37,456 nucleotides of DNA from Nitrospinota bacterium (GCA_029879765.1 JAOUPQ010000003.1:1-37456), one strand, 5' to 3'. Shown: positions 1,625 through 35,164, numbered from the stretch's first letter. Program-made: numbers and translations. The notes: generated from the sequence alone by a model not told the origin.

Positions 1625-2209
1625 TTATGTTCCGTCAAACAAAAGGTTATCTTTATGGATATTTCTATTCAGCGCCACCAAAATCCGCAACGTAAGGCCC
1701 CAAATCTCCTTCCCCTCGAAAACGATTCCCGGCCGGGACGCGCCGGGATCGAATTCACGAACCCTCTCCAGGATATCCAACGGAACCCAGAAAAACTCCG
1801 CCACTTCCGCCGGGGCGATTTCGATCGGCGGTTCTTCCTTCAGCGTCCCCACCACTGGCCATACTACAAAGCCGGTGGTTTTGGTCCGGGTGACCGGCAT
1901 ATGCCCCACTATCTCCACCAAATTGGCAGGGACGCCGATCTCTTCCTCCGTTTCCCGCAACGCGGCTTGAAGTGGCGTCTCGCCAGGCTCGATTTTCCCG
2001 CCAGGAAAGCAGACCTGGCCGGAGTGCAACTCCGGCGCCATGGCGCGGCGAATGAGCCCGATGGCCGGTCCCGCTTTCGAGGGGGCGAAAAGGATCATCA
2101 CCGCCGCGCGCACCCCGGTGTTACTTTCACAGTCCCTGGCGGTTACCGACAGTGACCCCGCGAGCCTGCGCCTGATTTCAGCTATGTTCATCTGGCCATA
2201 ATCGTTCAT
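1625..2209 (-). CDS. Nudix hydrolase, CoA pyrophosphatase (NudL/PCD1-like) subfamily
   Basis: Nudix box GKIEPGETPLQAALRETEEEIGV preceded by the NuCoA-like LIRR..ELHSGQVCFPGG; AAV near the N-terminus and IWGLT near the C-terminus. Confidence 0.88.
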   Translation of the reverse strand: MNDYGQMNIAEIRRRLAGSLSVTARDCESNTGVRAAVMILFAPSKAGPAIGLIRRAMAPELHSGQVCFPGGKIEPGETPLQAALRETEEEIGVPANLVEIVGHMPVTRTKTTGFVVWPVVGTLKEEPPIEIAPAEVAEFFWVPLDILERVREFDPGASRPGIVFEGKEIWGLTLRILVALNRNIHKDNLLFDGT

Positions 2210-2226
2210 TTATCAATTATATGCCC

Positions 2227-2264
2227 ATTGGCCATCCCTTTGCAGGATTGGATCGCCCCTTGCA
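2227..2264 (+). promoter_or_regulatory. Two tandem sigma54-like -24/-12 elements upstream of fwdD
   Basis: ATTGGCCATCCCTTTGCA (2227-2244) and ATTGGATCGCCCCTTGCA (2247-2264) both have GG-N10-GC spacing with TTGCA. A sigma70-like TTGATT-N18-TAGAAT (2270-2299) is an alternative. Confidence 0.4.
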
Positions 2265-2333
2265 TTATCTTGATTGCCTGCTATACACGGAAGTAGAATG
2301 AAAACATATACTTTTAAAGAGTTTAACAAAGCC

Positions 2334-2672
2334 ATGGCCCTGATAGGCATATTGAACACGGCGAGGACTTTGAAGCAGGGCGCCACCATGCATATCGCCA
2401 AGGACGCGCCGGAGTATCTGGAAGCGATAAGCTATGTGGGTGTCTCCGCGCGGGAGATGGAAAAAGCCGGGATCAGCGAAGGCGACGACGTGGTGGTGAT
2501 CAGCGACCATGGCCAGGTGACCGTCCAGGCCAGAAAGATGGATCTGCAGCCCGGCTCGTTTTTCATGCCGCTGTCCTATCTGGCCAACCGCCTGGTATCC
2601 GCCGAAACCCACGGCGCGGGAGTTCCAGGATTCAAGAACACCGTCGTCACCATAAAGAAACCGGACGAATAA
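2334..2672 (+). CDS. fwdD: Formylmethanofuran dehydrogenase subunit D (molybdopterin dinucleotide-binding)
   Basis: ILNTARTLKQG start motif (FwdD-type LxTGRTxxQG), GDDVVVISDHGQV, FMP..ANRLV..THGAGVPGFK; lies directly upstream of fwdB. Start placed at ATG 2334 by alignment to the family N-terminus; ATG 2298 is possible. Confidence 0.88.
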   Translation: MALIGILNTARTLKQGATMHIAKDAPEYLEAISYVGVSAREMEKAGISEGDDVVVISDHGQVTVQARKMDLQPGSFFMPLSYLANRLVSAETHGAGVPGFKNTVVTIKKPDE

Positions 2673-2699
2673 TCTACAATCAACCATGGGAGAGAATCC

Positions 2700-4019
2700 A
2701 TGACAGCAGTAAAACAGGATGAAGGGATCACGGTAACCGAACATGTGGTGTGCCCCTTCTGCGCCACGCTTTGCGACGATCTGGTCATCCATGTGCAGAA
2801 CAACCAGGTGGTGAAGGTGCGCAATGGATGCAACCTGGCCAGGGGAGTGTTCGAAAACGCCCACAAGGAGTGGGCTACCCCCAGGGTAAATGGCAAGGAG
2901 GTTCCCTATGACTCGGCGGTGGAGGAAGCCGCCAGGATTCTGGCCGCCTCCAACAATCCGCTTATCTACGGCCTCGCCGCCACGGATGTGGACGCCCAGA
3001 AAAAGTGCATAGAGCTGGCGGACCTGATCGGCGCGAACCTGGACAACGCCTCCTCGGTTTGACACTCCCCCACCATGGTGGCACTACAGCTCGGCGGTGC
3101 GCCGGCTGCCACCTTGGGCGAAGTGAAGAACCGGGCGGACCTGGTCATATTCTGGGGCTCCAACCCAGCCGAGAGCCATCCGCGCCATTTCACGCGGTAT
3201 TCCGGCTCGGCCAAGGGAAGGATGAACCCCAGAGGGCGCAAGGACCGATACATTGTGCTGGTGGACATCCGCCCCACGCCATCGGTCAAATACGCCGACG
3301 AGTTCATCCAGATCAAGCCGGGGCATGACTATGAGGTGTTGACGGCCATGCGCATGCTCACCAACGGGAACCGGCCGGATATGGACAGCGTTGGCGATGT
3401 GGCGATCCAGACCCTGGAGCGGCTGGTCCAGCGATGCAAGGACGCCCGGCTGGGCGTTCTGTTCTTTGGCCAGGGGATCACCGAAACCCGTGGCAAACAC
3501 CAGAACTCCATGGCCATTTATCAATTCGGGAAGGATATGAGCCGCCACAGCAAGTTCCTGACCCTGCCGATGCGGGGCCATTACAACGTGGTGGGCAGCG
3601 GCAACACCATGTGCTGGCAGACCGGATACCCCTTCGCCGTGAACTTTGGCCGGGGATATCCCCAGTTCAACCCTGGCGAGTTTTCCGTGGTGGACCTGCT
3701 CAAGCGCAAAGAGCCGGACGCGGCGCTGATCGTGGCCGCCGAGCCGATGGATCATCTGCCTTACGAGGCGGCTCGGCATCTGGAAAATATCCCCACCATA
3801 GTGCTGGACCCGAGGGAGACCTTGACCACCAAGATGGCGGACGTGGTGATCCCGGTGAAACACGCCGGGGTCTCCGTGGAGGGGACGGCGTATCGCATGG
3901 ACCACATCCCGATCAAGATGCGGTCGGTGCTCAACTCCCCATGGCCGAAGGATGACGAGCCGTTGTCCACCATCATCGCGCGGATCAAGGCGATCAGGAA
4001 GGAAGAGGCGGAAACCTAG
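2700..4019 (+). CDS. fwdB: Formylmethanofuran dehydrogenase subunit B, predicted selenoprotein (TGA 3060-3062 = Sec121), 439 aa
   Basis: ORFs 2700-3062 and 3075-4019 share a frame and are separated only by one TGA. Read-through gives DNASSV-U-HSPT, matching the FwdB DNxxSVCH metal-ligand motif. C18/C21/C25/C44 [4Fe-4S] motif, TLGEVKNRADLVIFWGSNPAESHPRH and PMRGHYNV (R292/H294) are present; GGGAGAG RBS. Confidence 0.92.
3077..3113 (+). promoter_or_regulatory. Putative bacterial-type SECIS hairpin
   Basis: GGTGGC(3077-3082)/GCCACC(3108-3113), AGC/GCT and CGGCG/CGCCG stems, bulged T at 3091, G-initiated apical loop GTG (3097-3099) 34 nt after the TGA. Confidence 0.72.
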
Positions 4020-5660
4020 ATGGGAATCAGGATAGTAAATGGCGAGGTGATCGACCCTGCCCATGGCGAGGACAGGGTGAAAAGAGACGTCCATATCAAG
4101 GATGGCAAGATCGTGGCCGACGCCGGGCAGGACGCCACCGTCATCGACGCCACCGGCTGCGTGGTGATGGCGGGGGGGGTGGATATCCACACCCACGTGG
4201 CCGGGCCGAAGGTGAACTTCGCCCGCCTGATGAGGCCGGAGGACCATCGATATGAGCATGTGTCCCGGGAGGATGGATATGAGCGATCGGGAACCGGCGG
4301 GGTGGCCGCCACCACATATACCACCGGGTATCGATACTGCGAGATGGGATACACCACCATCGTGGAGCCTGCGGTGCCGCCGCTGGGCGCCCGCCATGCC
4401 CATGAGGAGCTGGTGGACATCCCCCAGGTGGATAAGGCCATATTCACATTGCTCGGCAACTCGGAGATCATCTTCCAATATCTGGAAAAGGGAGAGACCA
4501 GCAAGATCAACGAATACATCTCCTGGATCATGGACGCCACCAAGTCCTACTCGGTGAAGATCGTCAATCCCGGCGGGGCGAACATGTGGAAGTATCGCGC
4601 GGACATCCACGACATAGACCAGAAGCTGCGTGATTTCGACACCACACCGCGCCAGATTATCCTGGCCATAGCCGACGCCATGGCCACCCTGGGCCTGCCC
4701 CATCCCTTGCATCTGCACTGCAACAACCTGGGGGTGCCGGACAGCTATAAGACAGCCATCGCCACCGCCGAGGCGATGGAAGGCCGACCGCTGCACCTGA
4801 CCCATCTTCAATTCAGCAGCTACGGCGCCTCCGGCAAGCGCAAGTTCTCCTCCGAGGCGCCCAGGCTGGCCCGGATGGTGAACGACAACAAGAACATCAC
4901 CATCGACGTGGGGCAGGTCCTTTTCGGCAAGACCACCACCATCACCGCCGATGGACCCTTCGAATATCACCTGCACAAGCTCACCGGCTCCAAATGGTAT
5001 AACGGCGATGTGGAGTGCGAGGATGGATGCGGAGTGGTGCCCTATGACTACAAGCGCAAGTCTTTCGTCAACTGCATCCAGTGGGCGGCGGGGCTGGAGC
5101 TGTTCCTGCTGATTGACGACCCGTGGCGGGTGTATCTGACCACCGACCACCCCAACGGCGCTCCATTTATCACATATCCCCACCTGATCCGCCTGCTGAT
5201 GGACAAGGATTTTCGCCGGGAACAGGTGGAGAAGATCAGCGCGGAAGCCGCCGCCGAGATTCCCCTGAAAGTCCTGGATCGGGAATATACCTTGTATGAA
5301 ATCGCCATTATCACCCGCAGTGGCACGGCCAGAAGGCTGGGTCTTGTGAACAAGGGGCATCTGGGAGTTGGGGGCGATGCGGATGTGGCGGTGTATCGCG
5401 CCAGCAGGAATTGGGAGGAGATGTTCGCCAAGCCGGCCTGGGTGATCAAGGATGGGCAGGTGGTGGCCAAAGAGGGGAAGGTGACCCGGCAGGTGTTCGG
5501 AACTACCATGTATGTCCATCCGGCGCGGGGGTTTGCCGATATCGAAAAGGATCTGGCGGATTTCTTCGAGAGCTATTACACGGTGAACATCAACAACTAT
5601 CCTGTGGGATTGGAATACCTGCCCCGGCCGGAGCTTATCCCCTGTCAGGTGAAGGCATAA
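4020..5660 (+). CDS. fwdA: Formylmethanofuran dehydrogenase subunit A (binuclear amidohydrolase)
   Basis: GGVDIHTHVAGPKVN, YTTGYRYCEMGYTT, KIVNPGG, LHLHCNNLG, HLTHLQF, TTDHPNG and KGHLGVGGDADVAVY; starts directly after the fwdB TAG. Confidence 0.95.
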   Translation: MGIRIVNGEVIDPAHGEDRVKRDVHIKDGKIVADAGQDATVIDATGCVVMAGGVDIHTHVAGPKVNFARLMRPEDHRYEHVSREDGYERSGTGGVAATTYTTGYRYCEMGYTTIVEPAVPPLGARHAHEELVDIPQVDKAIFTLLGNSEIIFQYLEKGETSKINEYISWIMDATKSYSVKIVNPGGANMWKYRADIHDIDQKLRDFDTTPRQIILAIADAMATLGLPHPLHLHCNNLGVPDSYKTAIATAEAMEGRPLHLTHLQFSSYGASGKRKFSSEAPRLARMVNDNKNITIDVGQVLFGKTTTITADGPFEYHLHKLTGSKWYNGDVECEDGCGVVPYDYKRKSFVNCIQWAAGLELFLLIDDPWRVYLTTDHPNGAPFITYPHLIRLLMDKDFRREQVEKISAEAAAEIPLKVLDREYTLYEIAIITRSGTARRLGLVNKGHLGVGGDADVAVYRASRNWEEMFAKPAWVIKDGQVVAKEGKVTRQVFGTTMYVHPARGFADIEKDLADFFESYYTVNINNYPVGLEYLPRPELIPCQVKA

Positions 5661-6478
5661 TGATTACTCTGACGCTTAAGGGAAAGCTTTCTATCCCGCT
5701 GGAGGCGGATTCGGTCACCCCGGACAATTTGCATGACAAGTCCAACCACCAGATAAAGGAGCAGACAGTCTACTGGGGAAACAAGAAGAAGACCATCGGT
5801 GATTTTTTCGAGGTGGAGGGGGAGAGGTCGGACCGGATCACCGTGGTGGGAGATTGCGCCAAGGTGAAGTTGTTGGGGCATAAGATGAGCTTCGGGGCCG
5901 TGCATGTGAAAGGGAACACAGGCTATAACACCGGCTCCTATATGACCGGGGGGGCTATCACCATCGACGGGAACACCGCCGACTACCTGGGCGCCATGAT
6001 GGAGGGGGGGCTTATCGACCTGAAGGGGAACGCTGGCCATTTTGTGGGGGGCGCATACAAAGGGGAGACCGCCGGGATGACCGGTGGCGAGATCATTGTT
6101 CGGGGAAACGTGGGCCACGAAACGGGGAGCTTCATGCGGCGAGGTTTGATCGCCGTGGGAGGGAACGCCGGGGATTTTACCGGGCTTTTCATGCTGGCGG
6201 GGACGATTGTGGTGTTGGGGAAGGCTGGGGAGAGAGTGGGGGCGAACATGAGCCGTGGCTCCATCATCCTGATGAACCAGGCCAGGCTGCTGCCCAGTTT
6301 TCTGGAAAACGGAGTGGTGGCCACCCCGGCGGTGGAAATAGTCTTGGGCAGAGTCCGGGAGCTGGGGCTGGCTCCCGCTGGTGGTGGGCGATATGTGAGG
6401 CACACCGGCGACGTAAACGCAGTGGGGCGTGGGGAGATTCTGATGCGGGTGGTGAACCGGAACCACTTGCAGGTCTGA
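5660..6478 (+). CDS. fwdC: Formylmethanofuran dehydrogenase subunit C (GXGXG beta-helix)
   Basis: MITLTLKGKLSIPLEADSVTPD N-terminus and repeated GxxMxGGxIxxxGN units, GGAYKGETAGMTGG. The ATG overlaps the fwdA stop (TAATG), so the ORF-track start at 5411 is an over-extension. Confidence 0.93.
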   Translation: MITLTLKGKLSIPLEADSVTPDNLHDKSNHQIKEQTVYWGNKKKTIGDFFEVEGERSDRITVVGDCAKVKLLGHKMSFGAVHVKGNTGYNTGSYMTGGAITIDGNTADYLGAMMEGGLIDLKGNAGHFVGGAYKGETAGMTGGEIIVRGNVGHETGSFMRRGLIAVGGNAGDFTGLFMLAGTIVVLGKAGERVGANMSRGSIILMNQARLLPSFLENGVVATPAVEIVLGRVRELGLAPAGGGRYVRHTGDVNAVGRGEILMRVVNRNHLQV

Positions 6479-6522
6479 CTTTCCCATCCGTAACGATAAT
6501 CGTATATATGGAAGTCCTTTTT
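6477..6522 (+). terminator. Possible intrinsic terminator after fwdC
   Basis: Imperfect hairpin GACTT..CCAT / ATGG-AAGTC followed by C-TTTTT. Confidence 0.35.
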
Positions 6523-6555
6523 GTTAAGAACAGGTTTATCAGATAGAAATAAACT

Positions 6556-6585
6556 TTGACATCAACAATGTACTGTTGATATATT
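6556..6585 (+). promoter_or_regulatory. Sigma70-like promoter with palindromic operator in the spacer
   Basis: TTGACA (6556-6561)-N18-TATATT (6580-6585); inverted repeat ATCAACA-N6-TGTTGAT spans 6561-6580. Confidence 0.5.
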
Positions 6586-7007
6586 ACCCTCGGTTGTCTG
6601 CAAGAGGGTTCATATTGCTTTGGATTTGCATCAGTTGGTTTTCCGGGAGAGAGACTGATTGGTGTTGTTTAAAGGGTTGACAGATGTCAGTTTGTAGGCG
6701 GGGTGTTTTTAATCAAGCTGCTATGCAGTCGAGCCACAAAGGCAAATCAACTACCACACAACTCCATCACATAGTCGCAGGAGTAATTCTGCTCATATAA
6801 ATATAAAGCCCTTTTGTTATGGACCGAGCGTAGAAAGCCTTACTTTGTAAGATCATAGTATTTCTGGTTATTTTTACGTTCTTTTTGGGGGGATGGTTGG
6901 AATAGGGGCGAAGTTTCCGCTGGAATGTCGGAGGCAGTTCGTCACCTTGTAAATATTTCGATGTAACGCAAAGTTACCGCGAAACAACTATTTTGGAGGA
7001 GAGAAAG

Positions 7008-7427
7008 ATGAAGAAGCTCGCGTTTGCACTGTTGATTGCTTTGACCTTTACTGGATTGACCGGATGTCCTGGATCCGATCCCGCCAAAGGAACCGCCCAG
7101 TTTTACAATGACCTGGTATACTCCAGCGGTCGGGAGTTCATGGCCAGGTTCGTGGTCGGAGGCATGACCATGGACGCGTGGACCGGCCGATGGTCTGCGG
7201 AAGCCAGCTCGGAGGATTGCGGAGGCCAGAAACCCGCCACCTTGTATCTGGATGGGGATAATTACGGCACCAACGATATAACCTTTGACTGCGATGTTCA
7301 TAACCTGTACAAGGTGACGTTGGTAAATGGCAATATTACCGTGCAGTACAGCACCGGCTCGAAAATGCGGGAGACCGTATCATACGCCCTTCCCGAGGGA
7401 AGCCCGTTTTCGGCCTTGTCGGAGTAA
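7008..7427 (+). CDS. Hypothetical lipoprotein (139 aa)
   Basis: GGAGGA RBS at 6995-7000; MKK, hydrophobic stretch, then lipobox LTGC. Confidence 0.8.
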   Translation: MKKLAFALLIALTFTGLTGCPGSDPAKGTAQFYNDLVYSSGREFMARFVVGGMTMDAWTGRWSAEASSEDCGGQKPATLYLDGDNYGTNDITFDCDVHNLYKVTLVNGNITVQYSTGSKMRETVSYALPEGSPFSALSE

Positions 7428-7580
7428 GGCGGATCTGACTGTTCGCCACTCTGCATGACGACGGCTGGCGCCTTTGGGCGAGGCCATCGGGCGTGGAAAG
7501 GCGGTAGAATGAAGGATCGCGGGGCGTTGGCGGTGGATGGACTGGTTTCATTCACGCCAGCGCCCTGTTTATTTTTCGGG

Positions 7581-7609
7581 CAGCCACCTCTGGAAAAAGT
7601 GAGTGGCTG
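7581..7609. terminator. Hairpin between convergent genes, possible terminator
   Basis: CAGCCAC...GTGGCTG inverted repeat followed by ATTTT, between stops at 7427 (+) and 7630 (-). Confidence 0.3.
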
Positions 7610-7629
7610 ATTTTCTGGTGAATTGAGCT

Positions 7630-8574
7630 TTAATATCTCCGCCAGCTCATGGGAACGCTGTTTTGCGCCGCATAGCTATCCAGCTTGCTCAACAGCCGGT
7701 CCGCTTCCCGGTGTTGATCCTCTGCAAAGCTGGCTCCCTCGCTCCCCCTGGAACCAGAGGATTTAAGCTGTTCGGAGTATTGCTTCCATCCGGTTCTCAT
7801 CCGGGAAAATTCATAGAACCACGAACGCCACCATGTTTCATCATGGCCGCCAGGTCTGCTTTGGGATTTGGGAAGCTCCTGGAAAATCAACAGATGGCGC
7901 TGGTTGTCCAGGGACATTTTATAGTTGGCCATGAAATCCATCCCCACCAGCCCCTCGAATGCTCTGGACATGGATTTGGACGTCACCTGCACCGGCACAA
8001 ATTCCACCGATCCCTCCCCCACCTCTATTTTGTCGATAATAGTGAGGATGGCCGGGATGCTTCCGCCGATTCCCCCAGAGCGAATCTTAAGCTTGCCTGT
8101 GTCGTTGTCGAAAACACCGATTTTTCTGGCGAGCTTTTCGGTGATAAGGACTCCTGGCGCCCCGGTGTCCAGCAGCATGGGCGCCGTCACAGAGCCGTTG
8201 AACCTGACGTTTACTATGATCCTTCGGGCCGTTCCCTCAAACGCCCGGTAGGGCACCACGAAGCTTTTCAGTGTCCCGGGCGCTTGGCCGCTTCCCCCTC
8301 CAAACTCCTGACTATCATTGTTCTTCCAGGGCGGCGTCCAGGGAGTGGAGCTCTTTTGCTGTTCCTTGATTTTATACTCCTTGCGCTCAATCTTCTCCCG
8401 ATACTCCACAGGAACTTCCCCCTCCGAGTCGGAATAATGCACATTCCCCTCTTTATCTTTCCATTTTATGACTTCCCCAGCAGATCCCAGGTTTGTGGCC
8501 CACAGCCCCATGGCCAGACCCATCAATGCTGACAGAAGAAGAAAGTCGATCTGTTTCCTTTGCAAAAGCTTCAT
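7630..8574 (-). CDS. Exported retropepsin-like aspartyl protease with N-terminal DUF4124-like domain
   Basis: Signal-like N-terminus, IKWKDKEGNVHYSD (DUF4124-like), catalytic MLLDTGA and C-lobe GLVGMDF. Confidence 0.82.
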   Translation of the reverse strand: MKLLQRKQIDFLLLSALMGLAMGLWATNLGSAGEVIKWKDKEGNVHYSDSEGEVPVEYREKIERKEYKIKEQQKSSTPWTPPWKNNDSQEFGGGSGQAPGTLKSFVVPYRAFEGTARRIIVNVRFNGSVTAPMLLDTGAPGVLITEKLARKIGVFDNDTGKLKIRSGGIGGSIPAILTIIDKIEVGEGSVEFVPVQVTSKSMSRAFEGLVGMDFMANYKMSLDNQRHLLIFQELPKSQSRPGGHDETWWRSWFYEFSRMRTGWKQYSEQLKSSGSRGSEGASFAEDQHREADRLLSKLDSYAAQNSVPMSWRRY

Positions 8575-10134: not shown

Positions 10135-11157
10135 TTAACAGATGCGGGGCAATATTTCCCCATGGGGCATGTTGATCATCCTCTCCCCCCCCACCACGGA
10201 GGCGCTGGACACCCTTCCTGCCCGGCCTTCTTCCACGCGCCCTATGACCGCGGAGAGCTTTCCCAGGGGGTGGGCGCGCATTATGGCCAGGGCCTTTTCC
10301 ACATCCTTTTCGGGGGTAACCACCACCATCTTCCCCTCGTTGGCCACCACCATCGGATCCAGCCCCAACAGCTCGCACGCTCCGGCCACCGCCGTGGCCA
10401 TGGGGATGGCGCGCTCGTCCAGACGGATGGCCACGCCGGAGTCCGCAGCGATCTCGCATATGGTGGTGGCAAGCCCGCCCCGGGTGGGGTCGCGCATCAC
10501 ATGAGCGTCAACTCCCCCATCCAGCAGCGCCCGCGCCAGGGTGTGCAGCGCCGCGGTGTCGCTTTGTATCGGGGACTGAAAGCGCAATCCCTCCCGCTCG
10601 GACATCACGGCGATCCCATGGTCGCCAATGGTTCCGTTGATTATCACCACGTCTCCCGGACGCGCGCCAGAGGCGTGGATCTGCACCCCATCCGGGCGGT
10701 ATCCCACGCCGGAGGTGTTTATGAATATGCCGTCCGCCTTGCCGTGGGGGACCACTTTTGTGTCTCCACAAACGATCGGCACACCCGACGCTCTGGCCGC
10801 TTGGCCCATGGACCGCATCACCGTCCGCAGGTCCGCCAGCGGGAAGCCTTCTTCCAGGATCAGCCCGACGCTGAGGGCCACAGGAATGGCGCCGCTCATG
10901 GCCAGGTCGTTTATGGTGCCATTGAACGCCAGGTCGCCGATATTCCCCCCCGGAAAGGCCCAGGGGGAGACCACATAGCTGTCGGTCGTGAAGCTAAGCC
11001 AGGCGCCCGGTATGGTGAGAAGCGCGGAATCCTCCATGGGTGGCGCCCCATCGGCGCCATAGAGGGCGGGGACTATTGTCTTGCTGATCAGGTCATGAGT
11101 CAGCTTCCCCCCGGAGCCGTGGCCCAGAGAGACCAGATCCGCCCTGCTACTCACCAT
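10135..11157 (-). CDS. hypE: Hydrogenase maturation carbamoyl dehydratase HypE
   Basis: LGHGSGG, FTTDSYVV, FPGGNIG, GDTKVV, MRDPTRGG, ANEG and the diagnostic C-terminal PRIC. Confidence 0.96.
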   Translation of the reverse strand: MVSSRADLVSLGHGSGGKLTHDLISKTIVPALYGADGAPPMEDSALLTIPGAWLSFTTDSYVVSPWAFPGGNIGDLAFNGTINDLAMSGAIPVALSVGLILEEGFPLADLRTVMRSMGQAARASGVPIVCGDTKVVPHGKADGIFINTSGVGYRPDGVQIHASGARPGDVVIINGTIGDHGIAVMSEREGLRFQSPIQSDTAALHTLARALLDGGVDAHVMRDPTRGGLATTICEIAADSGVAIRLDERAIPMATAVAGACELLGLDPMVVANEGKMVVVTPEKDVEKALAIMRAHPLGKLSAVIGRVEEGRAGRVSSASVVGGERMINMPHGEILPRIC

Positions 11158-12244
11158 ACCCTCCATATCTGTACGCCGCCGCGCAGGTGCCTTCCGAAGA
11201 GACCATGCAGGCCCCGATAGGATTGTCCGGCGTGCAGGCGGAGCCGAAGAGCCTGCACTCCGGAGGATCGTTGAGTCCCTTCAGTATCCGGCCGCAGATG
11301 CAGGCAGGGTTCTCCTTCGGCTCCGGCAGGGTGACGCCGAACTTTTTTGACGCGTCGAACTTATCGAACTCCTCGGAAATGGCCAGTCCGCTGTCCGGTA
11401 TCGTCCCCAGTCCACGCCACACCGCGTCGGACTTCACAAACACCTGCCGCAGTATCTGCTGGGCCTTCTTGTTCCCCTCCGGTTTCACTACACGGTAATA
11501 CTCGTTTTCCACCTCCGCCCGCCCTTCGGCAGCCTGGCGCGCCAGCATGGCCAGCCCCTTCAGGATATCCAGCGGCTCAAAACCGGTGACCACGCAGGGC
11601 ATGCTGAATTTCTTCGCCACTGGAATGTACGCGTCGGCGCCTATGATGGCGGAGACATGGGCGGGGCATATGTATCCGTCCAGTTTGATTTCGCCGGAAG
11701 TGAGAACCTCCATGGGCTCCGGCATGGTCTTGTGGGCGCACAGCACGGAGTAATTGGCGATTCCTTCCCGTCTGGCCTCCAGGATGGAACAGGCGATCAG
11801 CGGGGCGGTGGTCTCGAACCCCACACCGAGGAAAACCACTTCCTTTGCCGGATTCTCTTTGGCCAGCGCCACTGCGTCCAGCGGGGAGTAGACCACCCGG
11901 ATCTCTTTTCCCGAGCTGCGCTCTTTTTGCAGGGTGGAGCGGCTGCCGGGAACCCGGACCATATCCCCAAAGGTTGTGATGGCCACGTTGGGTTGGGCGG
12001 CGATCTCCACGGCGGTGTCTACATAATTTATCGGGGTGACGCACACGGGGCATCCCGGCCCGGAGACCAGTTTGATACTCTTTGGGATCATGGAGCGAAT
12101 ACCGTAGCGGTAAATCGCCATGGTGTGGGTGCCGCAAACCTCCATCAGGGTAATCTGGCGATCCAGCCCGGAGGCGGCTTTGCGGATATCATCCGCCAGC
12201 TTGTCGGCGGTTTCTTTGTCGCGGAATTCGTTTATGTATTTCAT
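11147..12244 (-). CDS. hypD: Hydrogenase maturation protein HypD
   Basis: MEVCGTHT, GPGCPVC, GFETT, PAHVS, C-terminal Cys cluster and GACMVSSEGTCAA. ATG 12244 overlaps the hypC stop (ATGA); the ORF-track start at 12469 is an over-extension. Confidence 0.96.
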   Translation of the reverse strand: MKYINEFRDKETADKLADDIRKAASGLDRQITLMEVCGTHTMAIYRYGIRSMIPKSIKLVSGPGCPVCVTPINYVDTAVEIAAQPNVAITTFGDMVRVPGSRSTLQKERSSGKEIRVVYSPLDAVALAKENPAKEVVFLGVGFETTAPLIACSILEARREGIANYSVLCAHKTMPEPMEVLTSGEIKLDGYICPAHVSAIIGADAYIPVAKKFSMPCVVTGFEPLDILKGLAMLARQAAEGRAEVENEYYRVVKPEGNKKAQQILRQVFVKSDAVWRGLGTIPDSGLAISEEFDKFDASKKFGVTLPEPKENPACICGRILKGLNDPPECRLFGSACTPDNPIGACMVSSEGTCAAAYRYGGYGE

Positions 12245-12471
12245 CCGTCTGGGTTTTCCGTGTCGAGTATGTCCCGCATAAGTCGTATGGTCTCCTCCGC
12301 CGCTTCGGGGTCCACCTTTTCGATGGCGAACCCGGCGTGGATCATCACATAATCGCCCACCTCTACACCGTCGAGCATCATCAGGCTGGCCTCCTTGCGC
12401 ACCCCGCCGATCTCCGCGACGCAACGGTATTCCGATATCTCCACCACTTTCATCGGCACAGCCACACACAT
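12241..12471 (-). CDS. hypC: Hydrogenase maturation chaperone HypC
   Basis: MCVAVP N-terminus and VGDYVMIHAGFAI. Confidence 0.96.
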   Translation of the reverse strand: MCVAVPMKVVEISEYRCVAEIGGVRKEASLMMLDGVEVGDYVMIHAGFAIEKVDPEAAEETIRLMRDILDTENPDG

Positions 12472-12475
12472 GGTT

Positions 12476-14764
12476 CTATTTCTCCTTTCCTGCCAGGATT
12501 CTTTGTCCGGCGATCAGCGCCTGGCCCAGGGCGATGCCTCCATCGTTGGGCGGGACGCGGCGGTGGCGGAAAACGGTGAAGCCATCTTCCCGCAGCCTCT
12601 GGCCCAGCCTGTCGCTCACATACCGGTTCTGGAACACTCCGCCGGACAAGAACACCCGGTCCAGGCCCGTCTGTTTTTTCAGTCGCATGGCCACGGTCGC
12701 GGCGCCCTGCACCACGGCCTGATGGAACCTGGCGGCGATGAATTCCGTGGGCTTTTCCCGGATCACGTCCTCCACCAAAGCCTGGAATACCGGATAAAAG
12801 TCTAGAATCGGCAAGCCGTCATTCTCCACGACGCCCATCGGGTAACCTTCCTCCACAGGATTTTCAAGCGCCATTTCCAGCTCCAGGGCCGCCTGCCCCT
12901 CGAATGTTATCTTGGAGCGAATGCCGACAAGAGCCGAGGCCGCGTCGAACATTCTTCCCATGCCGTGGGAGAGGGGGGAGTTGAGCCTGTTGGTGGCCAT
13001 TTTCAGAATATTATTTTTCGTGTCCTCACTCAGCTCAATCAGCCAGGAAAGGGGCATCCGGGGGATATTTGGCCCATATATCCCGCCCAGGATGGCCAGG
13101 GCCACTCGCCACGGCTCCTGGATCGCCTTGTCGCCTCCCGGAAGAGGAACGGGGCTGACAGAACCCATCCGCTGATATCCATTGATCCCCCCGACGAGGA
13201 ATTCACCTCCCCAGATTCCCCCATCCTCGCCATAGCCTGTGCCATCGAAAATGATTCCGATGGCCTCTCCCTCCTGGTGGGTTTCCGCCATCAAGGACAC
13301 CATATGGGCATGATGATGCTGCACCGCCACCGTGGGGGCCATCTTCTGCTCGCTGGCCCAGTGGGAGCTCATGTAATCTGGGTGCATGTCATGCGCCACC
13401 GCCTCCACCTCCTTGATGTCCAGAAGCCGCATGAACCTTTCGATGGTCTCGCCGAGAGCCTCATACACGCTCTTATGTTTCAGGTCACCAATATGCTGGC
13501 TCAAAAACGCCTTGGATCCCTTTATCAGGCAGAAGGTGTTTTTCAGGTCCCCCCCCACCGCCAGGATGGATGGATACTCCCTGTTCAACATGATCGGCAC
13601 CGGCGCGTATCCCCTGGAGCGGCGCAGCACCACGCTTCCATGGGACATGGGCCGCTCGATGGAGTCATCCTCCCGGGTGTGGATCTCCCGGTCGTGGGTC
13701 AGGAATGCGTCCGCCACTCCCCCAAGCTTCTCCAGCGCGTCCTCGTCCTTGAAGACTATCGGCTCATCGGAATTGTTGGCGCTGGTCATGATCATGGCGC
13801 CCAGGAACGCGTCGCTCATGATCAGGTGATGCAGGGGGGTGTATGGCAGCATGGCGCCGATGTACCGGTTGCGGGGCGAGGCTGATTTCATCAGACGGGA
13901 GTATTTCTTCTCCACCAGGATAATGGGCCGGCTGTGGGACTCCAGCAGCGATCGCACCGTGTCGTTTTCCATGATGAAAGGAATCAGCGCCCCGTAGCTG
14001 GGGAACATTACCGCGAACGGTTTTTCGTCGCGTTTCTTCAGCTCCCGGAGGCGATGCACCGCTTTTTCATCCAGCGCGTTTACAGCCAGGTGGTATCCCC
14101 CGATCCCTTTTATCGCCACCACGTGCCCCCTCTTTAGCTGAATCATTGTGGCCTCGAGAGGGTCGGTATAACTTGCTGGCTTGAAATTGGAGTCCCGATA
14201 GGTGAGCCTGGGGCCGCAGGAGTGGCAACCTATCGGTTGGGCATGGAACCGGCGGTTCTGGGGGCTTTCATACTCCGCTCGGCATTCGGAGCACATGCTG
14301 AACCTGCCCATGGTGGTGTTGGGCCTGTCATAGGGGATGTCTGTAATGATGGAGTAACGGGGGCCGCAATCGGTGCAGCTGATGAATGGATAGCGGTATC
14401 TCCGGTTTTGCGGATCGAAAAGCTCCCGTATGCATTGCTTGCAGACGTCAGAATCCGGCGCTATAAGCGCGGATTTCTCCCCTTCGCCCATGCTCTTTTC
14501 GATGCTGAACCCGCGAGTGGATTTTAATTCAATGGATACTTCTTCCAGCTTGATAATATGGGCCATGGGCGGGGCCTCGTTCATAACTCTCTGCGCGAAG
14601 GCATCAACCGATTTTTCCGGGCCCTGGATCTCTATCTCCACCCCTTTGCCATGGTTTAGCACATGACCGGCAAGGTTCATGTAGTTGGCCAGGTTATATA
14701 CAAAAGGGCGGAATCCCACTCCCTGGACGATTCCCTCGATCTTGATCAGGGTTCGTTTCATCAT
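12476..14764 (-). CDS. hypF: Carbamoyltransferase HypF
   Basis: GIVQGVGFRPF acylphosphatase domain, two pairs of CxxC zinc fingers, KGIGGYHL, HHHAH and PPNDGGIALGQ; GGAG RBS before ATG 14764/14761. Confidence 0.96.
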   Translation of the reverse strand: MMKRTLIKIEGIVQGVGFRPFVYNLANYMNLAGHVLNHGKGVEIEIQGPEKSVDAFAQRVMNEAPPMAHIIKLEEVSIELKSTRGFSIEKSMGEGEKSALIAPDSDVCKQCIRELFDPQNRRYRYPFISCTDCGPRYSIITDIPYDRPNTTMGRFSMCSECRAEYESPQNRRFHAQPIGCHSCGPRLTYRDSNFKPASYTDPLEATMIQLKRGHVVAIKGIGGYHLAVNALDEKAVHRLRELKKRDEKPFAVMFPSYGALIPFIMENDTVRSLLESHSRPIILVEKKYSRLMKSASPRNRYIGAMLPYTPLHHLIMSDAFLGAMIMTSANNSDEPIVFKDEDALEKLGGVADAFLTHDREIHTREDDSIERPMSHGSVVLRRSRGYAPVPIMLNREYPSILAVGGDLKNTFCLIKGSKAFLSQHIGDLKHKSVYEALGETIERFMRLLDIKEVEAVAHDMHPDYMSSHWASEQKMAPTVAVQHHHAHMVSLMAETHQEGEAIGIIFDGTGYGEDGGIWGGEFLVGGINGYQRMGSVSPVPLPGGDKAIQEPWRVALAILGGIYGPNIPRMPLSWLIELSEDTKNNILKMATNRLNSPLSHGMGRMFDAASALVGIRSKITFEGQAALELEMALENPVEEGYPMGVVENDGLPILDFYPVFQALVEDVIREKPTEFIAARFHQAVVQGAATVAMRLKKQTGLDRVFLSGGVFQNRYVSDRLGQRLREDGFTVFRHRRVPPNDGGIALGQALIAGQRILAGKEK

Positions 14765-14771
14765 TTCTCCC

Positions 14772-15434
14772 TTAACGCTCCTGGAGCAGGGAAAGCAGAA
14801 AGTCGTACCAGTCATCCATGCCATCGCCGGTTTTGGCGGAGACGTGGAACACTTTCAATGACTGGTTCACCTTCATGGAGTAATCCAGAAGCCGACCCAT
14901 GTCCAGATCCAGGTGGGGCAGCAGATCGGTCTTGGTGATGATCATGGCCGACGATGAGCGGAACGCTTTGGGGTACTTCACCGGTTTGTCCTCCCCCTCG
15001 GTGACGGAGACCAGGGCCACTTTCATCTCCTCGCCCAGGTCATAGGAAGCCGGGCAAACCAGGTTGCCCACGTTTTCGATGAACAGAAAACCGGGACCCG
15101 CAAAGCCCAGCTTCTCCAGCGCTTCCTCCACCATGGCCGCGTCCAGATGGCAGGCGGACTGGGTGTTGATCTGTATTACAGGGGCCCCCGTGGCGGCGAT
15201 CTTTCTGGCGTCGTTGTCGGTCTGTTGATCCCCCTCCAGCACCGCGATGGGAACCCTCGATTTAAGATCCTCGATAGTCTTCACCAGCATGGTGGTCTTG
15301 CCGGAACCTGGGGAGCTGATGAAATTGATGGCCACTATCCCCCTCTGCCGCAGCTTCTCTCTTATGCCTGCGGCTATCTGGTCGTTCTTCGACAGAACGT
15401 CCTTTTTGACATCAATTATCCTCACCCCGATCAC
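14772..15434 (-). CDS. hypB: Hydrogenase nickel-insertion GTPase HypB (short form, no His-rich N-terminus)
   Basis: SSPGSGKTT, CHLDA, ENVGNLVCPA, EGEDKPVKYP and TKTD. Confidence 0.96.
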   Translation of the reverse strand: MIGVRIIDVKKDVLSKNDQIAAGIREKLRQRGIVAINFISSPGSGKTTMLVKTIEDLKSRVPIAVLEGDQQTDNDARKIAATGAPVIQINTQSACHLDAAMVEEALEKLGFAGPGFLFIENVGNLVCPASYDLGEEMKVALVSVTEGEDKPVKYPKAFRSSSAMIITKTDLLPHLDLDMGRLLDYSMKVNQSLKVFHVSAKTGDGMDDWYDFLLSLLQER

Positions 15435-15772
15435 TCCACGGAAATGTTATCCACATACAATTCCTCCCCGCTGACTATCCTTCCCCCGAAGGCGCCGCAT
15501 TGGGGGCAGATGGCCAGAGGATTGTCCGGTTTAAACTCCCGGGCGCACTCCCCGCACACCGCCCTGGCTGCCACCCTCTCGATCACCAGCTCGCTTCCTT
15601 CCGCCGCCGTGCCCATGGCGCAGGCGGAGTAGCAGAATTCCACTGCCCCAGCCTCCACGCCAGAGAGCTCCCCAACGGTCACATTGACCTTCATCACCCT
15701 GGCGCCCCCCTCCTCATTTAGCCGGGACACGGCTATATCCACAATGCTCATGGCCACAGACATTTCGTGCAT
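15431..15772 (-). CDS. hypA: Hydrogenase nickel metallochaperone HypA
   Basis: MHE N-terminus at ATG 15772, CGEC and CPQC zinc site, GEEL. Confidence 0.95.
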   Translation of the reverse strand: MHEMSVAMSIVDIAVSRLNEEGGARVMKVNVTVGELSGVEAGAVEFCYSACAMGTAAEGSELVIERVAARAVCGECAREFKPDNPLAICPQCGAFGGRIVSGEELYVDNISVE

Positions 15773-15789
15773 GGCCTCGGCCGCGCCTT

Positions 15790-16299
15790 CTACCTGTCCA
15801 CCGTCACTTCCGCCGCCACCGGCGTCGCAAGCTTCATGGTGGAGGAAACGGGGCAATGGGCCGCCGCCAGGTCTATAAGCTCCCTGGTTTTAGCTTCATC
15901 GGCGGTGGTTTTGAGCCGGACTTTATACGACACATTCCGGAAACCCGGATTAACGTCCGCCACGTTGAACAACCCCCGCAGGTCGATATCTCCTGTCAGT
16001 TCCACATTCACCGCCTCCAGCTCGATATCCAGCATGGCGGCGTATTCCACGAACACCGCGCTGACACAGGATCCCAGCGCCATCAGCATCATCTCCATCG
16101 GGTTGGGGGCCTGGTCGTCCCCGCCGGAAGGAACCGGATAGTCCGACATGACAACATGGGTCCTGATACGGTTTTCGTTGAGCAGGCCGCCTTTCCATTC
16201 TGTGGACACACCAGGCCGATACACCGCGGCCTCAGGTTTTTTAACGAAGAGCGCCTTGCGGCTGGTCAGGATGTCTTTAAGAGGACGTCGCTCATTCAA
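15790..16299 (-). CDS. OsmC/Ohr-family redox protein
   Basis: DYP..GGDDQAPNPME..ALGSC and HCPVS two-Cys signature; TTG start with AGGAG RBS, overlapping the pepA end by 8 nt. Confidence 0.88.
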   Translation of the reverse strand: MNERRPLKDILTSRKALFVKKPEAAVYRPGVSTEWKGGLLNENRIRTHVVMSDYPVPSGGDDQAPNPMEMMLMALGSCVSAVFVEYAAMLDIELEAVNVELTGDIDLRGLFNVADVNPGFRNVSYKVRLKTTADEAKTRELIDLAAAHCPVSSTMKLATPVAAEVTVDR

Positions 16300-27661: not shown

Positions 27662-30448
27662 ATGAGCACCTGGAGGCTTCAATCCAAACTTCTGGTTTAT
27701 TTCCTGGCTGTGGGTTTTATCCCGTTCTTCATGATAGGCATGCTTGCCAATAATGAAATGACAAAAGCCTTGGAGGATCAGGCTAATGGCCAGCTGGAGG
27801 GGCTGCGGGAAATTAAAAAGCTGCAGATAGAAAAATTCTTCAAGGAGCGCCGGGGAGACATGGGCGTGATCATGGAGACCGTGGCCACTCTGCGCCGCGA
27901 AGCCATCGCCAAGATGGAAGCTGTCCGCCAGATAAAAGCGCACGAGATCAAAAAGCATTTCGAGAACAAGCTGGCCGAGCTGGAGGATGTGAAACGAAAC
28001 CTCCGGTTCACAGGTGGCGTCCAGGAAATGGAGGATGTCTTCCGATATGGAATCAACAGCCAGCAATATAAAGAAGCGTACAGTCGCAGGTTTTCCGGAT
28101 TCCAGTCGTTCGAAAAAAGTTTCCGCTTCTACGACGTTTTCCTTATAGACAATTCCGGCAACGTGGTCTTCTCCGTGGAGAAAGAAGGGGATCTGGGGGA
28201 GAACCTGCTCACCGGCAAGCTGAAAGACAGCGGGCTGGCCAGGGCTTTCAGGGAAGGGCGATCCAGGCCGGTCTTTATCGATTATTCCTGGTATGACGTT
28301 TCCAATGACGTCGCCTCCTTTCTGGCCACTCCTCTTTATGACACCAATGGCGGGGTGCTGGGTGTGGCGGCTTTCCAGGTATCGCTGGAGGAAATCAACA
28401 ACATCATGACCCAGAGAGATGGCATGGGCAAAACCGGGGAGACATATCTGGTGGGATCGGACATGCTGATGCGCTCCGATTCATTTCTGGACCCCACCCA
28501 CCACTCTGTGAAAGCCTCTTTCGCCAACCCGGACAAGGGAAAAGTGGACACGGAGGCCGCCAGGGAGGCTCTTGCCGGCAAAACCGGCGCCGACGTCATC
28601 CTCGACTATAACGGCAACCCTGTGGTTTCCGCCTACGCCCCCCTGAAAATCGGTGATGTAACCTGGGCCATTCTGGCGGAGATTGATGTGGCGGAAGCTT
28701 TTTCCCCGGTGGACCAGAACGGGAACGAATACTACAAGAAATATGTGGACCTCTACGGATACTACGATCTGTTCCTGATCAATCCTGACGGGCATGTCTT
28801 CTACACCGCCGCCAAGGAATCGGACCTGAACACCAACATGGTGAACGGAAAATACGCAAGCTCCGGCCTGGGCAAGCTCACCCGCCGTGTGCTGGAAACA
28901 AAACAGTTCCAGTTCGCCGATTTCGAGCCATACGCTCCCAGCGGCGGGGCTCCCGAGGCCTTCATCGCCGAGCCTGTGGTTCATAGCGGTAATGTGGAGA
29001 TCATTGTGGCCTTGCAGCTCTCTATCGACGCCATCAACGAGGTGATGACCACGCGGGCCGGAATGGGAGCCACAGGCGAAACATACCTGGTGGGCAAGGA
29101 CAACCTGATGCGCTCCGATTCCCGCGAGGATTCGGCAAACCGCTCGGTCAAGGCTTCCTTTGCTAATCCCGGCAGCGGCCGGGTGGAGACCAGGGCCTCC
29201 AGAGAAGCCCTCTCCGGCACCTCCGACGCTGATGTTATTGAGACGTATAACGGAGACACTGTCCTGTCCGCATGGGCTCCTGTCCGGGTGTTCGACACCA
29301 CCTGGGCGATGATGGCCGAGATAGATGAAGATGAAGCTTTCGCCGCCGTGGCCAAGGTGCAGATGTATATGGTGATTTTTGGCGTAATTGGCCTTGTGTC
29401 GATCGCAGTGTTCGCCATATATATCGCGCGGTCTATCACCAACCCGATCAACCGCATCATCGGCGAGATGAACGAGGGATCAAACCAGGTGGCCTCCGCC
29501 TCCACCGATATCTCCAACTCCAGCCAGAGCCTGGCCGAGGGCGCCACGGAACAGGCCTCCAGCCTGGAGGAGACATCCGCCGCCCTGGAGCAGGTGGCCG
29601 CCCAGACCAAGCAGAACGCCGACAACGCCAACATGGCCAACTCCCAGGCTGGCCAGACCCGCAAGGAAGCGGAGAACGGAACCGCCACCATGACAGAGAT
29701 GATCGGCTCCATGGAGGCGATCAACAAGTCCTCCCAGGAGATCGGCAAGATCATCAAGGTTATCGAGGAGATCGCTTTCCAGACCAACCTGCTGGCGCTC
29801 AACGCCGCCGTGGAAGCGGCCCGGGCCGGCGAGCATGGCAAGGGCTTTGCCGTGGTGGCAGAGGAGGTGCGCAACCTGGCCCAGCGCTCCGCCGCCGCCG
29901 CCAAGGACACCGGCGCCTTGATAGAGGAAGCCGTGCGCCGCGCCTCTGATGGCAACGATATGGCGCGCAAGTCCGGGGAGGTCCTGGGGCAGATCGTCAA
30001 TGGGGTCAAGAAGATGAGCGACCTGATCGGCGAAATCGCCGAGGCCTCCAACGAGCAGGCCCAGGGCGTGGACCAGGTGAACTCCGCCATTGCCCAGATG
30101 GACAAAGTGACCCAGCAGAACGCCGCCAATGCCGAGGAAGCCGCCGCCGCCTCCGAGGAGTTGAATGCCCAGGCGGACAAGCTCAATGACATGGTGATGG
30201 ACCTGACCAGGCTTATCGAAGGAACCGCCGACAGAGATATCGGCTTGCGCGCCAGGGCGCATACGGCCCCCAAGATGCTCACCGGGGGAATCCGGGGCGC
30301 CCGCAAACCCGCCCCCATGGCCAGGAATGCGGCCCCACGCAAAGCGCCGCCAAAAGCGGCCCACGTGCCCCCGCCTCCGCCGCCCAAAAAGCGGGAAAAA
30401 ACTCCAGAGGAGACCATCCCGCTGGAAGACGATATGGACGGGTTTTAA
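27662..30448 (+). CDS. Methyl-accepting chemotaxis protein with internally duplicated Cache-like sensor region
   Basis: Two TM segments flank a large extracytoplasmic region with two copies of YDxFLI...[12 protein letters not shown]..[15 protein letters not shown]...AEID; [34 protein letters not shown] tip; Pro/Lys-rich linker and C-terminal DMDGF. Confidence 0.95.
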
Positions 30449-35086: not shown

Positions 35087-35164
35087 ACTGGCCCAAGCTA
35101 AAAAAATAGCCCAGGCTTGCGTGGATGGATTACAATTCTATATCGGTATATGTCGAAGGTTCTC

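Follow-up and report, generated by a model that had tools for sequence, protein, structure and literature searches.

A putative selenocysteine-dependent formylmethanofuran dehydrogenase and a dispersed tetrahydromethanopterin pathway in a bacterium labelled Nitrospinota

The stretch of DNA analyzed here (the window) is contig C208, 37,456 nucleotides of a metagenome-assembled genome (MAG) labelled Nitrospinota bacterium (GCA_029879765.1, JAOUPQ010000003.1:1-37456; assembly of 3.04 Mb in 378 contigs, 94% complete), and it carries four co-directional genes, fwdD, fwdB, fwdA, and fwdC, that span positions 2334-6478. Judged from sequence, these genes probably encode a catalytically complete, selenocysteine (Sec)-dependent formylmethanofuran dehydrogenase, which would be of the archaeal Fwd type rather than of the hydrolytic Fhc type and would catalyze the last step of a tetrahydromethanopterin (H4MPT) route whose remaining genes are dispersed over the genome. 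The features on which this assignment is built are the following:

2334-2672 (+), fwdD, molybdopterin-dinucleotide-binding cap domain (PF01568 Molydop_binding, 50.9 bits)
2700-4019 (+), fwdB, tungsten (W)/molybdenum (Mo)-bis-pterin catalytic subunit with an N-terminal [4Fe-4S] motif and one UGA read through (TIGR03129, 506.6 bits; cut-off 327.8)
4020-5660 (+), fwdA, binuclear-metal amidohydrolase, site of formyl-methanofuran hydrolysis/condensation (TIGR03121, 713 bits)
5660-6478 (+), fwdC, GXGXG beta-helix subunit (PF01493; TIGR03122, 248 bits, cut-off 130.65)
3060-3062 (+), in-frame UGA read as Sec (U121), aligned with the catalytic Cys118 of Methanothermobacter wolfeii FwdB
3065-3120 (+), hairpin resembling a selenocysteine insertion sequence (SECIS), core stem-loop at 3077-3113 with apical loop GUG, identified by fold and conservation

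Under translation table 11, fwdB is called as two open reading frames (ORFs), 2700-3062 and 3075-4019, that are split by the in-frame TGA at 3060-3062, a codon that the initial annotation of this DNA did not mention. The read-through product is 439 aa long with the local sequence NASSV-U-HSP. Its alignment with the M. wolfeii tungsten FwdB covers the full length and scores 395 bits (5T5I_B), compared with only 64 bits against FhcB (6S6Y_B). Residues U121, H122, and R292 are the counterparts of Cys118, His119, and Arg288 in 5T5I_B, and in an alignment of homologs the four cysteines of the [4Fe-4S] motif (C18, C21, C25, and C44) as well as H122 and R292 are invariant, while residue 121 is Cys or Sec (with C standing for U). 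Exactly one TGA lies within fwdB in each of the eight genomes of the window's family, which represent six genera; both halves are intact in the six of these assemblies that hold the whole gene, and every family genome encodes one FwdB above the cut-off. Profile and tRNA searches revealed that tRNA-Sec, SelA, SelB, and SelD are all encoded in the window's genome. The reading of TGA 3060-3062 as a Sec codon is, for a prediction from sequence, well supported. An assembly error at this position was considered and rejected, because the same TGA is found in the eight genomes and in three close metagenome contigs.

The selD gene (G000:C126:23-877, L155; G000 being the window's genome) itself contains one in-frame TGA, so that SelD is probably a selenoprotein too. 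In three genomes of the order, selB is encoded approximately 0.5-1.5 kb from an fwd or fwdA-like locus (L043, G001:C147, 11872-13782; L069, 9458-11380; L070, 5999-7927); in the window's own genome selB is located on a separate contig, C312.

The stem-loop of SECIS type that is characteristic of bacterial selenoprotein genes is recognized here through conservation and synonymous constraint. For the 66 nt that begin with the UGA, the folding energy is -30.3 kcal/mol (z -2.59), which only 1 of 200 shuffles matched. All 13 pairs of the core hairpin (columns 18-54) are kept in the eight family genomes, 12 of them being invariant and one alternating between G-C and G-U; in the outer stem, three of the five pairs are broken in one or two family genomes. 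Synonymous diversity in fwdB has a mean of 0.507 over the 225 codons with a conserved amino acid (eight sequences, two of them partial), the minimum among 13-codon windows, 0.205, starts 5 codons past the UGA, and none of the 12 lowest such windows of the gene starts before the UGA or more than 11 codons beyond it. A second Sec clade, identified among the metagenome loci described later, carries a conserved hairpin of its own (GCCGCCC-AGUU-GGGYGGC), which lies 21 nt past the UGA. When the 63 nt after the site were compared between Sec and Cys loci, minimum free energies were not different (p = 0.24), whereas z values against shuffles were (-1.23 for Sec and -0.18 for Cys; p = 3e-6, computed over related loci that are not independent).

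The close relatives of FwdB in public databases (P0002-P0019; 80-91% identical) are all called as proteins of 298-320 aa that comprise the part after the UGA only, that is, FwdB of this lineage is systematically truncated in public gene calls, which is a mis-annotation. Relatives that are present at full length are 50-54% identical (one 63%) and carry Cys; the named ones originate from NC10/Methylomirabilales and Chloroflexi MAGs.

The remaining subunits also group with Fwd. FwdA matches archaeal FwdA with 495-498 bits versus 378 bits for FhcA (6S6Y_A); the alignment shows no variation in its metal ligands H57, H59, K180, H231, H233, H259, H262, and D376, and the motifs DIHTH, KIVNPGG, HLH, THLQF, and TDHPNG, which had been described as intact in the initial annotation, are visible in the alignments. 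The top solved-structure matches of FwdD are the FwdD chains 2KI8_A and 5T5I_D, and its score against the NCBIfam FwdD model NF042908 is 76 bits, under the cut-off of 175; those of FwdC are FwdC/FmdC chains. Thus, the features that define Fwd/Fmd are present, namely the catalytic Cys/Sec-His pair and Arg, the FeS motif, a separate FwdD, the FwdA ligands including the Lys for carboxylation, and the FwdC beta-helix. Those that define Fhc are absent: the B subunit keeps its catalytic and FeS residues, a D subunit is present, and Ftr is encoded on another contig.

The archaeal FwdABCDFG complex of M. wolfeii (PDB 5T5I) is the best or nearly best match of all four window subunits, and its catalytic Cys/Sec, His, and Arg, [4Fe-4S] motif, FwdD, and FwdA metal ligands are conserved in the window. 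The window differs in having Sec in place of Cys118, in that no FwdF was found in the genome and no ferredoxin-type gene in cis, and in its non-methanogenic context, which is indicated by an Mtd of the NAD(P) type and the absence of Mer. FhcABCD of Methylorubrum extorquens (PDB 6S6Y) has homologous A, B, and C subunits and acts after Mch in the same H4MPT pathway of bacteria. However, PMC6926001 describes an FhcB in which Cys, His, and Arg are lost along with the pterin site and the N-terminal FeS domain, a complex that lacks FwdD, and an Ftr that is part of both complex and operon, whereas in the window the residues, the pterin site, the FeS domain, and FwdD are retained and ftr lies outside the operon.

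The proposed mechanism is carried over from the solved archaeal enzyme, as outlined in a review (PMC11656701). FwdA would hydrolyze formyl-methanofuran at its binuclear metal center, and formate would move through an internal cavity that FwdC helps to stabilize to the FwdB site, which would be capped by FwdD. There, a W- or Mo-bis-pterin, the metal of which would be liganded by Sec121, would oxidize formate to CO2, and the electrons, at about -500 mV, would leave FwdB via its N-terminal [4Fe-4S] cluster and reach a partner encoded outside the operon. Decoding of the UGA at 3060-3062 would rely on the SelA, SelB, SelD, and tRNA-Sec of the genome and on the hairpin just downstream.

The initial annotation interpreted the four genes as a stand-alone module that acts on an unknown carrier, and our scans of the 37 kb window likewise found no ftr, mch, or ferredoxin-motif ORF. 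The rest of the genome encodes these partners: Ftr is found on C12 (401 bits), Mch on C34 (358 bits), an MtdA/B-type methylene-H4MPT dehydrogenase on C327, and MfnB on C141, the latter two being present in all eight family genomes. Mch is located within an H4MPT biosynthesis cluster together with MptN, a CitG-like protein, a DmrA/AfpA-like flavoprotein, a dihydropteroate-synthase-like protein, and PabB. Wherever the family was tested, Ftr, Mch, Mtd, MfnB, and H4MPT biosynthesis genes were identified in 8/8 genomes. Therefore, the carriers are methanofuran and H4MPT, as indicated by MfnB, Ftr, Mch, and the biosynthesis cluster, and the module is not stand-alone. A genome-wide search for this pathway had been set beforehand as the test that could refute the stand-alone interpretation, and it largely did so in that ftr, mch, mtd, and mfnB were found, although fwdF was not. 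We conclude that fwdDBAC belongs to a scattered but ordinary C1 pathway, in which the order of steps would be MtdA/B-type dehydrogenase, Mch, Ftr, and Fwd.

MetF is present in the window's genome. Mer and F420-dependent Mtd are found in 0/8 family genomes, and CdhC/AcsB and formate-tetrahydrofolate ligase (FTHFS) had no match in the window's own genome. A role in the Wood-Ljungdahl pathway was rejected, since Mer, CdhC/AcsB, and FTHFS were not found; together with the absence of F420-dependent Mtd, this shows that the route does not represent the methyl branch of that pathway and lacks a reductive sink. Because Mtd is of the NAD(P) type and neither Mer nor carbon monoxide dehydrogenase/acetyl-CoA synthase (CODH/ACS) was found, we infer that the enzyme works mainly in the oxidative direction, in which a C1 unit at the level of formaldehyde would be converted to CO2 and yield low-potential electrons.

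The same enzyme could instead be mainly reductive and fix CO2 onto methanofuran with reduced ferredoxin, supplying methylene-H4MPT for biosynthesis. We regard this alternative as unlikely, even though Fwd is reversible and works reductively in methanogens, as stated in PMC11656701, the absence of Fae in 32/33 genomes of the phylum speaks against classical formaldehyde entry, and an alternative C1 source could be useful to a cell in which FTHFS was not found. Without Mer, CODH/ACS, or F420-dependent Mtd, there is no known sink past methylene-H4MPT, no low-potential donor module is encoded alongside fwd, and the Mtd belongs to the MtdA/B type, which is NAD(P)-linked and works oxidatively in methylotrophs.

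The surroundings of ftr and mtd contain further C1 genes. The ftr gene (G000:C12:1207-9085, L007) is located near genes for an AcsV/RamA-like corrinoid activase and for two methyltransferases of the MtaA/CmuA family as well as near an ORF of 215 aa that matches no NCBIfam model, and the MtdA/B-type gene (G000:C327:4952-6497, L050) is directly followed by a gene for a B12-binding (MtaC-like) protein. These neighbors hint at a methyl-corrinoid metabolism linked to the H4MPT route, although Mer was not found.

A cluster of hyp genes lies 3.66 kb past fwdC on the minus strand, in agreement with the distance of about 3.7 kb given in the initial annotation, which derived from it a possible link between Fwd and hydrogenase. 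The genome encodes a membrane-bound [NiFe] hydrogenase that includes a small subunit and cytochrome b (G000:C366, L052) and a Hox-like [NiFe] hydrogenase that includes NuoF-like and NuoG-like diaphorase subunits (G000:C98, L053), and these two enzymes explain the hyp cluster. The flanks of fwdDBAC differ between genera: In G005 they consist of a molybdoenzyme gene with a multiheme cytochrome upstream and NhaB downstream (10/17 ORFs scanned), in G007 of aminoacyl-tRNA synthetase genes and TilS (8/13 ORFs scanned), and only in G001, which belongs to the window's genus, do they resemble those of the window (5/18 ORFs scanned). Moreover, no match to a [NiFe] large subunit was found in G003 (100% complete) and G007 (99% complete), both of which carry fwd. 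According to PMC11656701, H2 (-414 mV) cannot drive the reduction of CO2 to formyl-methanofuran (-530 mV) without a donor of lower potential. The link to hydrogenase is not upheld by these observations, and the proximity of fwd and hyp looks coincidental. It is accordingly very improbable that fwdDBAC functions on its own as a C1 module, with an N-formyl carrier that is unknown and possibly with coupling to H2 through its hyp/hydrogenase neighbor: The absence of ftr, mch, and a ferredoxin gene from the window, the hyp genes 3.7 kb away, and the two [NiFe] hydrogenases are what would favor it, but the partner genes are found elsewhere in the genome, and their presence in every family genome argues against Ftr and Mch being on contaminating contigs.

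From a metagenome contig scan, the best 80 of 584 confirmed loci (L073-L152) were analyzed. Codon 121 is TGA in 37 of these 80 loci and TGC or TGT in the other 43; H122 and R292 are kept in all 80, and the four FeS cysteines in 76, the other four loci being cut off at the 5' end. The position of ftr follows the codon: In all 12 Sec-type loci that hold both fwdA and fwdC, A is directly followed by C, whereas ftr lies between them in all 21 such Cys-type loci, and a further 7 loci break off after A-ftr (the other 40 loci are incomplete for the A-C order). ORFs with Fe-S motifs were found in 1/37 Sec loci and 8/43 Cys loci. A quick maximum-likelihood tree of 89 rows (midpoint root, no archaeal references; four short loci and two partial family genes left out) requires two changes between Sec and Cys, with the window's clade (9 rows) as sister to a Cys protein and a Sec clade of 31 rows as sister to a Cys clade of 22 rows. 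The association between Sec and the position of ftr represents two evolutionary events and not 33 independent ones.

Within the phylum, which was sampled with 33 species genomes, FwdB above the cut-off is confined to the window's family (8/8 versus 0/25 elsewhere), as is FwdC (8/8 versus 0/24 plus one weak match), whereas Ftr is found in 28/33 genomes and a FwdA-like protein in 27/33. (A query of the genome contigs with a single FwdA protein returned only two true relatives; an alignment query would reach further.) Three sister families of the same order have a solitary FwdA-like gene, which is 42-48% identical and keeps the metal ligands. These loci, L068 (G008:C4), L069 (G013:C33), and L070 (G010:C64), are syntenic with window positions 1625-8574 and are flanked by the same Nudix gene, SelB, or a clan-AA aspartic protease; Ftr is present in the three genomes, and neither fwdB nor fwdC was found anywhere in them (fwdD was not searched). 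In the one locus examined of another order (G018), a shorter FhcA-like gene and ftr are approximately 1.9 kb apart and separated by two small ORFs, and several further genomes have an FhcA-like gene and ftr close together on one contig. Tentatively, Sec-type fwdDBAC without ftr or a ferredoxin subunit may be a distinct bacterial class, for which an origin from Cys-type fwdDBA-ftr-C ancestors on at least two occasions is proposed and in which an unknown electron partner would dock directly on FwdB. In this phylum it would also be one end of a series that leads from the full FwdDBAC of one family via a solitary FwdA-like hydrolase plus Ftr at the syntenic site in sister families to a short FhcA-like gene located next to ftr in another order.

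That the TGA is a true stop, so that fwdB is split or decaying and the complex is an Fhc-like hydrolase that releases formate, has in its favor that public gene calls treat the part after the TGA as a separate protein of 298-320 aa and that the sister families keep only the fwdA-like hydrolase, but it is scarcely credible for a TGA that lies exactly at the catalytic Cys codon in 8/8 genomes from six genera and at the same site in 37/80 metagenomic homologs, in a gene that has retained all catalytic and FeS residues, has both halves intact in the 6/8 assemblies that hold it whole, and shows a conserved hairpin as well as synonymous constraint downstream of the TGA, and in a genome with complete Sec machinery.

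Several observations nevertheless weigh against the assignment of the window's genes to a complete, Sec-dependent Fwd in an oxidative H4MPT route. The Sec codon and the W- or Mo-bis-pterin are predictions from sequence. Among the 18 predicted pairs of the hairpin there are no compensatory changes, so that its support is conservation and not covariation, and an Rfam scan of positions 2200-7700 at E <= 1 yielded no SECIS family but only a miRNA match that is due to chance. The best match to the FwdF model NF042909 in the genome has 39.6 bits versus a cut-off of 375, and a scan for the ferredoxin motif CxxCxxCxxxCP, which may miss variant ferredoxins and was the only search made for FwdG, gave no ORF in the 37 kb or around the fwd genes of G001 and G007. 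With neither a FwdF homolog found nor a ferredoxin-type gene in cis, the missing electron-transfer subunits are the one trait of the system that is still unusual, in line with the earlier statement that ftr and ferredoxin subunits are not encoded in the operon. On C34, the match to beta-RFAP synthase is weak (78.9 bits versus a cut-off of 328). Fae had no match in the window's genome and was found in only 1/33 genomes of the phylum, which leaves the entry of C1 units into the oxidative route unexplained and is the main weakness of the oxidative interpretation. All absences from the genome are provisional given an assembly that is 94% complete and consists of 378 contigs.

Selenoprotein forms of this enzyme have precedents in bacteria. 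As described in PMC4807772, fmdB encodes a selenoprotein within an fmdD-fmdB-fmdA-fmdC operon in the planctomycete 'P2' and in a Lake Washington fosmid, and some organisms hold both Sec and Cys forms; in the window's family, each genome has one FwdB above the cut-off. The 'P2' operon is like the window in gene order, in its Sec-encoded fmdB, and in a bacterial host with H4MPT-linked C1 genes (PMC4807772), but it belongs to another phylum, and the likeness is one of description and not of direct sequence comparison. The Cys-type bacterial fwdD-B-A-ftr-C clusters of NC10/Methylomirabilales and Chloroflexi/Anaerolineae MAGs share the D-B-A order and all catalytic and FeS residues with the window, and their FwdB is 50-54% identical, but they have TGC or TGT at the site and ftr between A and C, where Sec-type loci have A directly followed by C. 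PMC10100899 counts 149 bacterial FwdB homologs, for which transfer from archaea was inferred. In the literature on Nitrospinota/Nitrospinae we found no description of an H4MPT/formylmethanofuran pathway, although wider surveys of bacterial H4MPT genes may cover the lineage. The Sec-type fwdDBAC operon is, therefore, already known from bacteria, and the window adds another example of it and no new kind of C1 module.

The other features in the neighborhood of the operon are as follows:

1625-2209 (-), Nudix/CoA-pyrophosphatase gene, divergent from the fwd genes
2270-2299 (+), weak sigma-70-like promoter candidate 5' of fwdD (TTGATT-18-TAGAAT, 9/12, by consensus match only)
10135-15856 (-), hypE, D, C, F, B, and A, a cluster that begins 3.66 kb past fwdC

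The arrangement of the operon agrees with the initial annotation in coordinates and junctions: The four genes are tightly coupled, the stop of fwdB abuts the ATG of fwdA, fwdA and fwdC overlap by one base (TAATG), and the operon is bounded by the divergent Nudix gene and by an AT-rich gap 3' of fwdC, where the GC content drops. The best sigma-70-like site of the region lies in this gap (6556-6585, plus strand; TTGACA-18-TATATT, 11/12, with TG) and has a palindrome, ATCAACA..TGTTGAT, between its two hexamers; downstream of it there is no family-bearing ORF and no Rfam match. The remainder of the window consists of housekeeping and signaling genes, which include one for a methyl-accepting chemotaxis protein with a dCache domain (27662-30448) and two tandem 7TMR-DISM hybrid histidine kinase/response-regulator genes with identical domain order (32693-37456, plus strand).

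These results correct a systematic annotation error, by which FwdB is listed as a fragment of 298-320 residues in this lineage, and they assign to a sediment lineage labelled Nitrospinota a predicted redox-competent, selenium-dependent Fwd of four subunits that is probably the last step of a full H4MPT route. If the series outlined above for the phylum is true, it could show a redox Fwd turning into a formate-releasing hydrolase.

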